Of a stretch of DNA of 18,550 bases, positions 7,626 to 10,970 are shown in pieces (the stretch's first letter is position 1; each line of letters opens with the position of its first letter). Source of the DNA: a virus; the UHGV virus genome UHGV-1832352. One strand, written 5' to 3'. The notes under the pieces were generated by a model, which did not search any database, was not told the DNA's origin, and saw nothing but the letters and a program-made list of their open reading frames with translations. The position numbers were made by a program, and so were the translations under genes.

Positions 7626-7661
7626 CTACTTAAAATAGCAAAATGCAACTACTTAAAATAG
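7626..7661. promoter_or_regulatory. Right operator region: two copies of CTACTTAAAATAG, 23 bp apart
   Basis: Identical 13-bp sites at 7626-7638 and 7649-7661 in the cro/cI divergent intergenic region; partial dyad (CTA...TAG); the same motif recurs at 9567-9602. Confidence 0.55.
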
Positions 7662-7699
7662 AAATGACTAGTGTATGTGATGTGAGTAATCTTCTACCT

Positions 7700-8404
7700 A
7701 TGGTAGAAGAACAGAAGTATCCAGATTTCGCCAAGAGACTAAACGAGCTAATGACAAACAAGGGAATTTCTGTCACCCAACTCAAAAGTCTTGTGGGCGT
7801 TACATATGAAATGGCGCGGCGATACACAATCGGCGCTGCGAAGCCTCGTGCCTCTGTCATGAATAAACTTGCATTGGCTCTGGGGGTATCAGCTTCATAT
7901 TTAGAATATGGTGTTGGCGAGAGAGAAGGATGTAAGGAAATGGCAAGCATCCCCAATCCAACGAAACCCGATGTATACAGGATAGAAGTTTTGGATCTTA
8001 GCGTTAGCGCAGGACCTGGGACCTATATGCTTTCAGACTATGTTGATGTGCTCTACGCCATTGAGTTCACAACAGAACATGCCCGTTCTCTTTTCGGCAA
8101 CCGTTCTCAGAATGATATTAAGGTTATGACTGTAAATGGCGATAGTATGTCCCCTACACTCGTTTCCGGAGACCGACTGTTTGTCGACATTTCTGTTCGT
8201 CACTTCCAGACTGATGGAGTTTACTCTTTCGTTTACGGTAAGACTTTTCATGTCAAACGTCTTCAAATGCAAGGTGACAAGCTAGCCGTTCTTTCGGATA
8301 ACCCCGCCTATGAGAAATGGTACATCGATGAAAAATCGCAGGATCAGCTTTATGTAATGGGCAAGGCGTTGATTCACGAATCTATAAAATACAACCGATT
8401 GTAA
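7700..8404 (+). CDS. CI-type prophage repressor (HTH_XRE plus S24 LexA-like autopeptidase domain)
   Basis: HTH (ISVTQLKSLVGVTYEMARRYT), Ser nucleophile context MTVNGDSMSPTL and Lys context HVKRLQ. Start uncertain (7643, 7664 or 7700); no SD upstream, consistent with a leaderless cI-like mRNA. Confidence 0.85.
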   Translation: MVEEQKYPDFAKRLNELMTNKGISVTQLKSLVGVTYEMARRYTIGAAKPRASVMNKLALALGVSASYLEYGVGEREGCKEMASIPNPTKPDVYRIEVLDLSVSAGPGTYMLSDYVDVLYAIEFTTEHARSLFGNRSQNDIKVMTVNGDSMSPTLVSGDRLFVDISVRHFQTDGVYSFVYGKTFHVKRLQMQGDKLAVLSDNPAYEKWYIDEKSQDQLYVMGKALIHESIKYNRL

Positions 8405-9602: not shown

Positions 9603-9731
9603 CAGAATTATTTTAACGACAACGAACAGGCAGGACGCCCACGAAGTAGCCGCCTGGGGCATATGAAGTCCAGGATGATTCGTTGAGTCATGTTGTGCCA
9701 CCAGGCACTCATGTTAAAGCAGGTGTATGAA

Positions 9732-10007
9732 ATGAAAGTCCAGATTTTAAACAATAACTGTGAAGTCGTTTGGTCATACGACATAGCCGCCCCTGTAGAT
9801 CAGAGCGGCGATAGCTGGACCAATGGGAAACATCAGATTATGGCTGGAGTTGTATTCTCTTTACGCCGTGCTTTAGAACAGGCTGAAGTCTTTCCATCAG
9901 ACCCTGAATGGAAATGGCCTTTTTCTATTTGTCCAAATTCGGAGAGTACATTTCAGAAAATTGGTCAGAAAGTCGCACTCGAAGAGCATCAGCCAACTGT
10001 TTCCTGA
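9732..10007 (+). CDS. Hypothetical protein, first gene after the left operator region
   Basis: ATG at 9732 with AGGTG SD; 91 aa; no arginine-rich motif, so not obviously N-like. Its 3' end overlaps a convergent minus-strand ORF. Confidence 0.45.
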   Translation: MKVQILNNNCEVVWSYDIAAPVDQSGDSWTNGKHQIMAGVVFSLRRALEQAEVFPSDPEWKWPFSICPNSESTFQKIGQKVALEEHQPTVS

Positions 10008-10170
10008 TTTTTTCAGGTAACTCGTCGGCATCGCAGAAACAACAACGCTCGATCATGTTGAAAGCCGATTCGTAGAACTGTTTTTGCTGAGTGTCGCTGA
10101 GACAGGAAAAGAGCGACGTTACGATGATTTTATTAATTGCATTATCAAGTTCTTTTTCATCAAAAGTCAT
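9925..10170 (-). CDS. Hypothetical small protein (81 aa)
   Basis: ATG at 10170 with AAGGA SD about 8 nt upstream; acidic, protein-like sequence with a CCFC motif. Confidence 0.5.
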   Translation of the reverse strand: MTFDEKELDNAINKIIVTSLFSCLSDTQQKQFYESAFNMIERCCFCDADELPEKIRKQLADALRVRLSDQFSEMYSPNLDK

Positions 10171-10423
10171 TTGATTTTCCTTTTATGTATACGGGCTTAA
10201 AAGGATACCACCGAGCCTGAAGTGGTGAAAAGACAGGCACATAACAGCTAAGTATTTTCAACCAGAGAGAATCCTTAGCGTTGTGGTGAATGCGGCTCAG
10301 CGCACGCGGGTTAAGGTTGAGGCTGACAGTCGACCTTCTGTGGATACCCACCCGTCTGGTGTGCAACCTTCGCCAGGCACCGGGAGGCACCCGGCACCAC
10401 AACTTTATGCTGTGTGTAGTCCT

Positions 10424-10559
10424 GGCGGTACCAGTTTGTACCCTTGCTTCCGGCTGGTACCGTCCTTTTTACAAAACAGAGAAGAGCATCACCGGACGAC
10501 GGGCTCATAACCCAATCCATCCGGGCGGCTGCCACCGCAGGTGTTCTTCTCTGTTTTGT
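10424..10559 (+). other. Structured GC-rich non-coding element: terminator-like hairpin plus a long stem-loop
   Basis: Hairpin 10426-10434/10454-10462 (CGGTACCAG/CTGGTACCG) followed by TTTTT at 10466-10470; then a 15-bp perfect inverted repeat ACAAAACAGAGAAGA (10471-10485) / TCTTCTCTGTTTTGT (10545-10559) enclosing about 59 nt. Confidence 0.4.
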
Positions 10560-10607
10560 GGAGAAACTAATCGGCCTTGCAGGGTCGATATGATGAGGAG
10601 CAGCAAA

Positions 10608-10970
10608 ATGGCTAGCGAACGCAGTACTGATGTGCAGGCATTTATCGGGGAGCTGGACGGCGGCGTATTTGAAACCAAAATCGGCGCAGTTCTCAGTGAA
10701 GTCGCTTCCGGTGTGATGAACACGAAAACCAAAGGTAAGGTCTCACTCAACCTAGAAATCGAACCATTTGATGAGAACCGTGTGAAAATCAAACACAAAC
10801 TCTCATATGTTCGCCCGACTAACCGCGGGAAAATTTCCGAAGAAGACACCACCGAAACGCCGATGTATGTCAATCGCGGTGGTCGCCTGACTATTCTGCA
10901 GGAAGACCAGGGACAATTACTGACTCTTGCCGGTGAACCTGACGGAAAACTCCGCGCAGCAGGTCATTAA
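10608..10970 (+). CDS. Hypothetical phage protein (YfdP-like position)
   Basis: Start taken at ATG 10608 (GAGGAG SD, 6-nt spacer) rather than the ORF-track start at 10290, which runs through the structured region; about 120 aa. Confidence 0.65.
   Translation: MASERSTDVQAFIGELDGGVFETKIGAVLSEVASGVMNTKTKGKVSLNLEIEPFDENRVKIKHKLSYVRPTNRGKISEEDTTETPMYVNRGGRLTILQEDQGQLLTLAGEPDGKLRAAGH

Follow-up and report, generated by a model that had tools for sequence, protein, structure and literature searches.

sRNA-17 is a 193-nt RNA encoded by a mEp460-like prophage of Escherichia coli K1 strain RS218, and was mapped by 5′ and 3′ rapid amplification of cDNA ends (RACE) and Northern blotting (PMC7719688). 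Control by ArcA and phenotypes including an effect on the bloodstream survival of E. coli K1 have been reported, together with the statement that the RNA has no Rfam homolog (PMC7719688). The canonical form of STnc100, another prophage-borne small RNA, overlaps EcOnc27/sRNA103, an Hfq-binding small RNA found in published work 75 nt downstream of stx2B, and a 2026 preprint (doi 10.64898/2026.05.13.724894) linked STnc100 structurally to PasD, a small RNA of enteropathogenic E. coli (EPEC) detected by Hfq RIL-seq. Here we analyzed an 18,550-nt stretch of viral DNA, UHGV virus genome UHGV-1832352 (hereafter, the window), which is an SfV/e14-like lambdoid prophage. The region in front of its yfdP gene, in which a preliminary description made from the letters alone had noticed GC-rich inverted repeats, is a two-module non-coding cassette composed of a small-RNA gene and an independent folded leader (hp2), both of which are conserved RNA structures.

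The small-RNA half brings four RNAs with separate names, STnc100/EcOnc27, PasD, sRNA-17 and, by way of the 3′ tract, RprA, together in a single modular family of prophages, and it shows that the RNA precedes genes for excision and recombination. In the second half, databases label as hypothetical proteins or pseudogenes what is a well-supported structured RNA, hp2. We consider it probable that the cassette consists of an STnc100-group small RNA with an attenuating terminator, followed by hp2 acting as a processing or translation-control leader on read-through transcripts.

The small-RNA module

The core of the first module lies at positions 10279–10403 of the plus strand and folds into several hairpins closed by GUUGUGGUG and CACCACAAC. 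A Rfam search in E-value mode aligned positions 10250–10472 of the plus strand with the whole STnc100 model (RF02076, positions 1–206 of 206; E = 1.5e-7), and no Rfam family matched anywhere in the window at the curated thresholds. The alignment covers the full architecture of the model, namely the closing helix, the internal hairpins, the invariant CACCGGGAGGCACCCGGCACCA, and the terminal terminator hairpin. The closing helix (10280–10288 paired with 10395–10403), which the preliminary description had missed, closes a five-hairpin junction. The STnc100 match, the covariation of this helix, and the collinearity with the RACE-mapped sRNA-17 all bear out the earlier suggestion that a structured small RNA is encoded here.

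An exact scan of viral contigs with the 21-mer CACCGGGAGGCACCCGGCACC returned at least 120 stretches, which together with loci collected earlier gave 85 distinct cores. This 21-mer and GGUGAAU are the invariant parts of the core, being common to the window and 68 distinct trimmed variants. Four pairs of the closing helix just outside the invariant GGUG/CACC covary in the 68 variants; one of them is GC in 29, AU in 25, and GU in 8, and another is CG in 21, UA in 20, and UG in 11. The helix contains 83 double-change cells, compared with 41 ± 11 after shuffling (0 of 500 shuffles as high), and controls in which the arms were slid pair at 34–46%.

Elements with sub-threshold STnc100 scores (33–41 bits) were found in ST64B, sal3, phiES15, mEp460_4F5, P1, and JL22. 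They are located between the repressor side and the early-left genes in ST64B, sal3, and mEp460_4F5, upstream of kil in phiES15, and upstream of tciA, in the C1-controlled ban operon, in P1 and JL22. The window RNA resembles STnc100 in the full-length alignment, the invariant GGUGAAU and CACCGGGAGGCACCCGGCACCA, the covarying closing helix, the terminal terminator, and its prophage origin, whereas the first hairpin (CCCCC..GGGG in STnc100 and GCGG..CGC in the window) and the linker differ. The genomic position also differs, since STnc100 and PasD belong to the late region, where they are encoded behind stx or close to Q and the lysis genes, and the window copy lies in the early-left operon. PasD is grouped with the window RNA via its published link to STnc100 and not by its sequence. 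On sequence grounds, the window copy is a divergent member of the known prophage small-RNA group STnc100/PasD/sRNA-17 in a different operon. An Hfq-bound, trans-acting role is known for the relatives from the literature, and by analogy the window copy is a candidate for such a role.

Two further observations concern STnc100-type cores. Seven IMG/VR loci (L212, L258, L219, L235, L249, L269, and L274) carry two to three cores per contig, several pairs being exactly 484 nt apart and one pair 267 nt apart. In three other loci (L092, L118, and L098), the last hairpin of the small-RNA body upstream of hp2 reads GGGUUCGAGUCCC or GGGUUCGAAUCCC, a textbook tRNA T-arm, followed by ..CCACAAC. The STnc100-type core may descend from, or imitate, the acceptor/T-arm domain of a tRNA; ARAGORN detected no tRNA in these T-arm-like variants (GGGUUCGA(G/A)UCCC).

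The published primers for sRNA-17 map to positions 2354–2547 of mEp460 (locus L010), where the RNA starts with CGUUGUGGUGAAUGCG and ends with GGUACCGCUCUUUU; its limits are CGUUGUGGUGAAU, in the 5′ strand of the closing helix, and the U-tract of the terminator. Because the Northern probe and the 5′-RACE primers are antisense to the plus strand, this RNA runs in the direction of yfdP. Positions 10279–10470 of the window (about 192 nt) align with it end to end; the first 16 nt are identical, the last ~70 nt are nearly identical, and the interior differs. The locus and the strand are the same, the ends of the aligned region match the 5′ and 3′ RACE ends, and hp2 and yfdP follow in both. The two RNAs share the 5′ start CGUUGUGGUGAAUGCG and a 3′ part made up of CACCACAAC, a linker, the GGCGGUACCAG terminator, and the U-tract. 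In contrast, the internal core hairpins have been replaced, the last hairpin is GCCGG-AGAUCAGCA-CCGGU in sRNA-17 and CCGGG-AGGCA-CCCGG in the window, and the linker of sRNA-17 (AGCCACUGCUU, compared with UUUAUGCUGUGUGUAGUCC in the window) lacks the RprA-like tract described below. The reported lack of a Rfam homolog for sRNA-17 is due to the sub-threshold nature of the STnc100 match.

The 3′ domain and the terminator

A single-stranded tract, UGCUGUGUGUAGUC, at positions 10408–10421 of the plus strand is identical to nucleotides 61–74 of E. coli RprA (sequence taken from PMC5606850 and PMC7311995). The local score of this 14-nt identity is 28, and the maximum in 300 shuffles was 23. The shared nucleotides sit just 5′ of the terminator in both RNAs. 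Relatives of the L112 type have 24 nt and an RprA-like terminator in common with RprA (score 55, shuffle maximum 24), and phiES15 gave a full-length RprA match in Rfam (41 bits). RprA-type tracts are also present in L112, L162, L185, and phiES15 (L006). The tract is kept where the core has been swapped (phiNP) or the terminator has been swapped (ST64B and phiES15), and this persistence makes it a candidate seed or Hfq-binding module. Judging from this likeness, the prophage small RNAs may share or compete for the Hfq module or the targets of RprA. The window has only the 14-nt tract in common with RprA, and the RprA model (RF00034, cut-off 70 bits) gave no match in the window at E ≤ 10. The rpoS-pairing region of RprA, which we take to be nucleotides 33–62, is found upstream of this tract, and the window does not conserve it. 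No description of RprA-like prophage RNAs was found in the literature searched. A common ancestry of the 5′ part of RprA and the STnc100 core was also considered and is not claimed, because 35 of 1000 shuffles score as well (p ~0.035).

The small RNA ends at an intrinsic terminator (10424–10470, plus strand) with a 13-bp stem in the minimum-energy fold, GGCGGUACCAGUU...GGCUGGUACCGUC, and a U-tract at 10466–10470. The 9-bp inverted repeat that had been read as a terminator (10426–10434/10454–10462) is perfect, is followed by TCC and TTTTT, and corresponds to the terminal hairpin of the STnc100 model, in agreement with that assignment. The 3′ RACE end of sRNA-17 falls in the homologous U-tract. 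A simple terminator scan did not flag the 10424–10470 hairpin, whose loop exceeds the 8-nt limit of the scan. In the relatives, the GC-rich stem keeps its position and varies in sequence (GGCGGUACC.., GGCGGCAUC.., GUCGGCGUC.., GCCCAUC.., and CUGGCGGCC..), and each stem is followed by U5–U7, as expected of real terminators.

The arrangement resembles that of DicF, which is also a small RNA inside a repressor-controlled early prophage operon (the dicB operon of Qin). The 5′ half of the terminator, UGGCGGUA(U/C)CAGUUU, is nearly identical in the two, and P1 has an annotated dicF-like region in the operon that holds its copies of both elements. However, the terminator alignment is marginal (score 28, shuffle maximum 25), the sequence 5′ of the terminator is different, and the DicF model (RF00039, cut-off 48 bits) reached only 15.7 bits (E = 1.1), so that the window RNA is not assigned to this family.

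The hp2 module

The second module, hp2, occupies positions 10462–10567 of the plus strand and is an independent three-way-junction RNA. The perfect 15-bp repeat noticed earlier (10471–10485/10545–10559) extends, as had been proposed, to a main stem of 20 contiguous pairs (10471–10490/10540–10559), two of which are G·U; a repeat finder gave 25-nt arms with 84% complementarity. The stem encloses arm A (10492–10524), in which a closing stem of 5 bp is combined with internal loops and GGG-CUCAUAA-CCC, and arm B (10525–10538), which is hypervariable in sequence and length and always forms a hairpin. The trailing GGAGAAAC pairs with the terminator U-tract. In RNA folding, positions 10465–10612 gave z = -5.7 (none of 200 shuffles reached this stability), and positions 10240–10475, which cover the small RNA, gave z = -2.8.

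An exact scan with GACGGGCTCATAACCCAATCC hit at least 120 viral contigs and provided about 50 distinct hp2 sequences among the matches listed, 44 of which form alignment A1. In A1, 96.3% of the cells pair, compared with 40–49% in slid controls. Eight pairs have changed on both sides (for example, GC 27/CG 17, CG 28/AU 13, and AU 33/GC 9), and 61 double-change cells were counted against 20 ± 3 in shuffled alignments, none of 500 being as high. RNAalifold arrived de novo at the same fold, with 36 pairs, nine of them compensatory, and included the pairing of the U-tract with the trailing GGAGA. The pairing is also specific to one strand. U·G occurs at one position in 37 of the 44 variants, and G·U pairs are present in 10–12 variants at two others; read on the opposite strand, all of these pairs would become A·C mismatches. 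A covariance model of hp2 (R1) scored 120.4 bits on the plus strand and 40.7 bits on the minus strand. The G·U pairs and this asymmetry indicate that hp2 is an RNA on the yfdP strand and not a DNA palindrome.

No family of Rfam 15 matched hp2 at E ≤ 10. There is no mention of the element in the sRNA-17 paper, the sole paper on the locus from a yfdP literature search, or in the other literature searched, and hp2 appears to be an undescribed RNA motif. One IMG/VR locus (L085) carries a recombinant copy, in which a main-stem 5′ arm of the window type is joined to a 3′ arm of a different type; the crossover falls within arm A and leaves the stem with two mismatches.

A small GC hairpin, hp3 (10570–10589, plus strand; predicted by folding), with the loop UUGCAG is located 5 nt upstream of the Shine-Dalgarno sequence of yfdP. 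Related leaders usually have such a hairpin between hp2 and the ribosome-binding site, with a changing stem and a loop that remains U(U/G)GCAG irrespective of the downstream gene, as judged by eye. The U(U/G)GCAG loop recurs in arm B of some hp2 variants, and arm B of the window has it reverse-complemented. Neither hp2 nor hp3 has a second copy in the window, including the cro-to-Q operon.

Modularity and distribution of hp2

The preliminary description had treated the two repeats as one nested unit, and this view does not hold. The exact STnc100 21-mer occurs upstream of hp2 in 34 of 111 copies, and hp2 follows within 230 nt of the core in 37 of 150 cores, both counted among the matches listed; that is, about a third of the hp2 copies follow an STnc100-type core, and about a quarter of the cores precede hp2. 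mEp460, cdtI, and Stx2c phages share only positions 10423–10610 with the window. Many other RNA bodies found upstream of hp2 have a similar general design ending in ..CACAAC, some with GGUGG-AGGCA-CCACC or a T-arm-like hairpin. The gene after hp2 also varies, being YfdP-like (MASERS.. or MSNDRM..), RdgC-like (MKLPKFRNAIVY..), or another gene. Thus, hp2 is a separate mobile module.

Copies confirmed by R1 were found in about 20 enterobacterial species, among them members of Leclercia, Kosakonia, Enterobacter, Citrobacter, Phytobacter, Mixta, Erwinia, Buttiauxella, Trabulsiella, Pseudescherichia, and Pseudocitrobacter. For these genomes, a 17-base degenerate pattern was used, which gave 73 matches against ~70 by chance (our own estimate from the size of the collection), and only copies confirmed by R1 were used. 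Yersinia alsatica and a Pantoea genome bin have more divergent copies, which scored 44 and 46 bits, respectively. Outside Enterobacterales, a single copy was found, in an Acidobacteriaceae bin (PMHC01000083.1; L165, 2544–2637) in which contamination is possible; it scored 40 bits and has an identical 21-mer, with every helix different. A proline-rich 65-aa open reading frame (ORF) lies on one side of it and the Shine-Dalgarno sequence preceding the next ORF on the other, and genes for a Dam-type methylase and a glucosaminidase are a few kb away.

Phage P1 (AF234172.1, L003) has two divergent hp2-like copies on the strand of the ban operon, at 2142–2256 and 2419–2515 (R1 scores of 31 and 35 bits). 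Their arm reads ACGGG(U/G)UCAUAUCCCAAUC, and the second copy is directly upstream of the STnc100-like core (2504–2623). The same operon carries tRNA genes, in the order tRNA-Asn, tRNA-Thr, and then the hp2-like copies. The P1 copies lie under the annotated minus-strand coding sequences plp and upl, which may be mis-annotated structured RNA. A metagenome scan revealed more three-way junctions with unrelated helices in L314, L319, L369, and L402; the junction of L319 (OGMV01000124.1, 6381–6496) begins about 10 nt after a tRNA-Thr(UGU) gene.

Probable function of the cassette

Transcription from the left would mostly stop at 10466–10470, releasing a small RNA of ~190 nt and keeping yfdP-yfdQ-yfdR-xis-int low. 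hp2 would be made only on read-through transcripts, in which its fold would sequester the terminator U-tract in a duplex of ~25 bp. It would then act post-transcriptionally on the read-through mRNA, either by RNase III-type processing and stability or by translation control. In this way, hp2 would separate the stable RNA from the mRNA, with hp3 and the ribosome-binding site following, and the tRNA-like tip of arm A (see below) may be a recognition feature for a hypothetical partner. The reported effect of deleting sRNA-17, which raised the reads of yfdP from 0.49 to 47 and those of yfdR from 0 to 8.5 (PMC7719688), is consistent with a polar or attenuating element before yfdP. The terminator/antiterminator switch proposed in the preliminary description is at odds with the layout, because the long hairpin lies wholly downstream of the terminator and cannot compete with it during transcription.

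RNase III hairpins separate stable RNA from mRNA in the metY-rimP-nusA-infB operon of E. coli and in the lambda N leader. These systems and the window share the order of a stable RNA, a leaky terminator, a long duplex (at least 20 bp, in the 5′ leader), and the first cistron. The long duplex, its place between a stable RNA and the first cistron, and these precedents make a processing role the most likely one for hp2. Further features favor a role as a separator or in processing; hp2 follows a terminator in almost all copies, follows tRNA-Thr in L319, occurs in the tRNA-bearing ban operon of P1, and has a near-perfect duplex of 20–25 bp. However, hp2 differs from the known RNase III hairpins in its branched interior and its sequence-invariant arm, and its cleavage is proposed by analogy.

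Several points weigh against this picture. The STnc100 score of the window copy, 41.2 bits, is below the Rfam cut-off of 47, so that the RNA is not a formal member of the family. No sigma-70 promoter was found on the plus strand at the threshold of a consensus scan, and the 5′ end of the small RNA may be a processing site. The rise of yfdP upon deletion of sRNA-17 is ambiguous, since the deletion arms keep the terminator and an effect of the cassette or scar, or the loss of an action of the RNA in trans or in cis, could also be responsible. Three hp2 loci (L059, L079, and L083) have no upstream terminator. RNase III, whose action here is assumed from the precedents, would not need an invariant 21-nt arm. 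Finally, most hp2 homologs were fetched with arm A as the bait, and the invariance of arm A in A1 is therefore partly built in, although the arm has bait-independent support from ST64B, sal3, and phiNP, which were retrieved by BLAST, and from the divergent model hits.

Alternative explanations

An RNase III model leaves the invariant arm A unexplained, and the arm points to a specific partner. The near-invariant tip, GACGGGCUCAUAACCCAAUCC (10498–10518, plus strand), occurs once in the window and in none of 200 shuffles. Within it, CGGGCUCAUAACCC (10500–10513) has all of its 14 nt in common with the anticodon stem-loop of initiator tRNA-fMet from E. coli, whose sequence includes ...GUCGGGCUCAUAACCCGAAG... 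(PMC8887418). The CUCAUAA loop is closed by three consecutive G-C pairs. Initiator tRNAs are distinguished by such a run of three G-C pairs in the anticodon stem. The tip persists in copies that differ in every helix, namely those of P1, Yersinia, the acidobacterial bin, and the metagenome variants. The divergent copies keep U33, CAU, and A37 (N-U-CAU-A-N), those of P1 and Yersinia reading GGG-UUCAUAU-CCC. ST64B has CUCAUUA, with one change, and two E. coli-type copies have one broken G-C pair. We regard the resemblance of arm A to the initiator tRNA, which is one of sequence, as a lead.

One explanation would be that hp2 is an initiator-tRNA mimic, in which the tip is shown to a factor that reads the anticodon stem-loop of tRNA-fMet and thereby sets early-left expression or protects the phage. 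Candidate partners are an anticodon nuclease of the VapC/MvpT type (with hp2 as a decoy or a sensor), methionyl-tRNA synthetase (MetRS; in the style of the thrS operator), and the P site of the 30S subunit with initiation factor 3 (IF3). In favor of mimicry are the 14-nt identity, which includes the G-C pairs and the loop, the retention of N-U-CAU-A-N in copies whose surrounding helices have all changed, and the copy in the acidobacterial prophage-like region, which fits a universal target. The outer stem, the long arm, and the short 3′ arm would together resemble a tRNA without a D arm, as far as the folds indicate. In Shigella and Salmonella, VapC cuts the anticodon loop of tRNA-fMet, and evasion of toxins through RNA mimicry is known in phages, as in the case of the ToxI mimic; both facts suit the mimic explanation. 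The leader hairpin of the thrS operator, just upstream of the ribosome-binding site, likewise copies the anticodon stem-loop of a specific tRNA. In contrast to thrS, however, the genes after hp2 are unrelated to methionine or translation initiation and vary between phages, and the partner of hp2 is only hypothetical.

Other points speak against mimicry. The match is confined to three stem pairs and the loop, with flanks of GAC/AAUCC instead of the GUC/GAAGG of E. coli tRNA-fMet, and ST64B and the two E. coli-type copies carry the changes given above. ARAGORN found no tRNA in the window or at these positions in 50 related loci, and the Rfam tRNA model had no match in 10100–10700 at E ≤ 10. A low-copy mRNA leader would be a poor stoichiometric decoy for an abundant tRNA, and the resemblance was noticed post hoc. 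On balance, we think it rather unlikely, though worth keeping in view, that hp2 represents a new class of phage leader RNA, a D-arm-less tRNA-like junction whose retention in enterobacterial prophages, in P1, and in an acidobacterial prophage would stem from its engaging a universal factor that reads tRNA-fMet (a VapC-like nuclease, MetRS, or the P site with IF3). If it did, hp2 would couple early prophage expression or anti-defense to the state of the host initiator-tRNA machinery, giving temperate phages a new means of sensing or manipulating the machinery of translation initiation or tRNA cleavage. Even with a resemblance that has no function, hp2 is still a clean candidate for a processing signal between a stable RNA and an mRNA. 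Kissing of the CUCAUAA loop with the downstream AUG region was also examined by eye, and only 5-nt matches at non-homologous positions were found.

We hold it to be improbable that hp2, like put of HK022, is a cis-acting processive antiterminator, which would modify RNA polymerase so that it passes downstream terminators and reaches xis and int, in place of an N protein. Such a role would suit a structured RNA on the transcribed strand that starts the early-left operon in phages without an annotated N-like gene and that is independent of the following gene. However, hp2 lies downstream, not upstream, of the first strong terminator, here that of the small RNA, and is present once in the window, with none in the cro-to-Q operon, whereas HK022 has both putL and putR. 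It has no similarity to put and is a three-way junction with a 20-bp stem instead of two short stem-loops, and the acidobacterial copy is a plain intergenic hairpin between two ORFs. A lambda-type nut site is not indicated either; neither hp2 nor hp3 is repeated in the window, and YfdP and YfdQ are not N-like.

Still less probable is that the long repeat acts as DNA, in the form of a protein-binding palindrome, a cruciform, or a recombination hotspot for mosaic exchange, as the preliminary description had also entertained. The mosaic boundaries at ~10207 and ~10423 and the crossover of L085 inside the conserved arm would agree with a DNA site. Against it, the helices keep G·U and not A·C at the three positions given above, the arms and loops lack symmetry and show conservation in a single orientation, R1 prefers the plus strand (120 compared with 41 bits), and arm B is free in length, yet always a hairpin. 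The recombination inside the arm looks like a consequence of conservation and not a function.

That the region encodes a protein, as a 226-aa extension of the yfdP frame (10290–10970), an ORF annotated by PGAP (10283–10593, plus strand), or a minus-strand ORF (10311–10535), is hardly credible in spite of the long ORFs that cross it on both strands, the PGAP annotation of 10283–10593 as a pseudogene ('frameshifted hypothetical protein'), and a match of the minus-strand ORF to phrog_3651 (a 162-aa family; E = 8e-50), because no frame is consistently open in 27 element types (open stretches across the arm are 17 to ~200 codons long, and their boundaries shift), hp2 is 106, 107, 108, 109, 114, 125, 129, 132, or 133 nt long, with indels of non-triplet size, entire terminators and cores have been exchanged among the relatives, Pfam gave no match, and the substitutions in the core closing helix and hp2 are compensatory for RNA pairing. 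The dismissal of the crossing ORFs as artefacts in the preliminary description is thus upheld, and the phrog_3651 and PGAP 'families' are artefacts of the conserved RNA. These spurious protein families, and possibly also upl and plp of P1, should be re-annotated. A mini-ORF after hp2, (G/A)UG-GAG-AAA ((M/V)EK...), was likewise discarded; its lengths and sequences vary, it stops at codon 5 in L075, and several examples are fused in frame to the next gene.

Genomic context of the cassette

On the plus strand, the S24-peptidase repressor gene (7643–8404) is followed by two accessory genes, an ORF at 9690–10007, the non-coding stretch, and yfdP (10608–10970, 120 aa; phrog_204 match, E = 1e-49), the first downstream gene, whose ATG at 10608 is preceded by the Shine-Dalgarno sequence GAGGAG (10595–10600). 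Downstream are yfdQ (DUF2303), yfdR, xis, and int, in accordance with the earlier placement of the region at the head of the repressor-proximal operon. The same order of repressor, cassette, and first early-left gene is found in SfV, ST64B, sal3, phiNP, mEp460, and mEp460_4F5. The stretch is indeed GC-rich, as had been noted, with a GC content of 0.53–0.58 over 10200–10700 and 0.38 in the left flank.

Over the 440 nt at 10171–10610, several E. coli chromosomes match the window with 100% identity, and Shigella phage SfV does so with 99.8%. DNA matching this region is present in 2785 of 5426 complete E. coli genomes (about half), and at least 80% of it is covered in 1814. CPS-53 of E. coli K-12 lacks the element, and its homology begins only at the ribosome-binding site of yfdP; K-12 transcriptomics is therefore uninformative.

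Homology to most related phages starts at ~10207. The conserved 5′ module at 10208–10243 (plus strand), which consists of the hairpin CCACCGAGCCUGAAGUGG and then UGAAAAGACAGGCAC, is a candidate 5′ leader or promoter region of the small RNA, and with small changes (CCACCGCGCCUGAUGUGG-UUAAAAGCAGGC) it recurs at the 5′ edge of many variants. Between this module and the small-RNA core, an inverted repeat predicted to fold into a 13-bp hairpin (10247–10279, plus strand) is specific to the window and accounts for ~25 extra nt relative to mEp460. Hand-picked promoter matches of 8 out of 12 are not conserved, and we claim no transcription start from them. The operator repeats of the cI-cro region have no copy near the element, and a pL-type operator is not evident. 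Direct repeats CTACTTAAAATAG(C/A)AA at 7626–7641 and 7649–7664 flank the start of the repressor gene and are operator-like, and they have no copy near the small-RNA region.

The 81-aa ORF at 9925–10170 is on the minus strand and therefore diverges from yfdP, and is not convergent with it as had been stated. It overlaps convergently, by 83 nt, with the plus-strand ORF at 9690–10007. Both ORFs have full-length PHROG matches (phrog_3311 for 9925–10170 and phrog_3195 for 9690–10007). The SfV and PGAP annotations contain only the plus-strand ORF; the minus-strand ORF has a protein-like sequence and a good Shine-Dalgarno sequence, AAGGA. On the minus strand of ST64B (L005), in the rightward early region, C4 antisense RNA (409–496; 79.7 bits) is next to IsrK (521–597; 64.3 bits); both exceed the Rfam cut-offs and are close to the regulator gene sb41.

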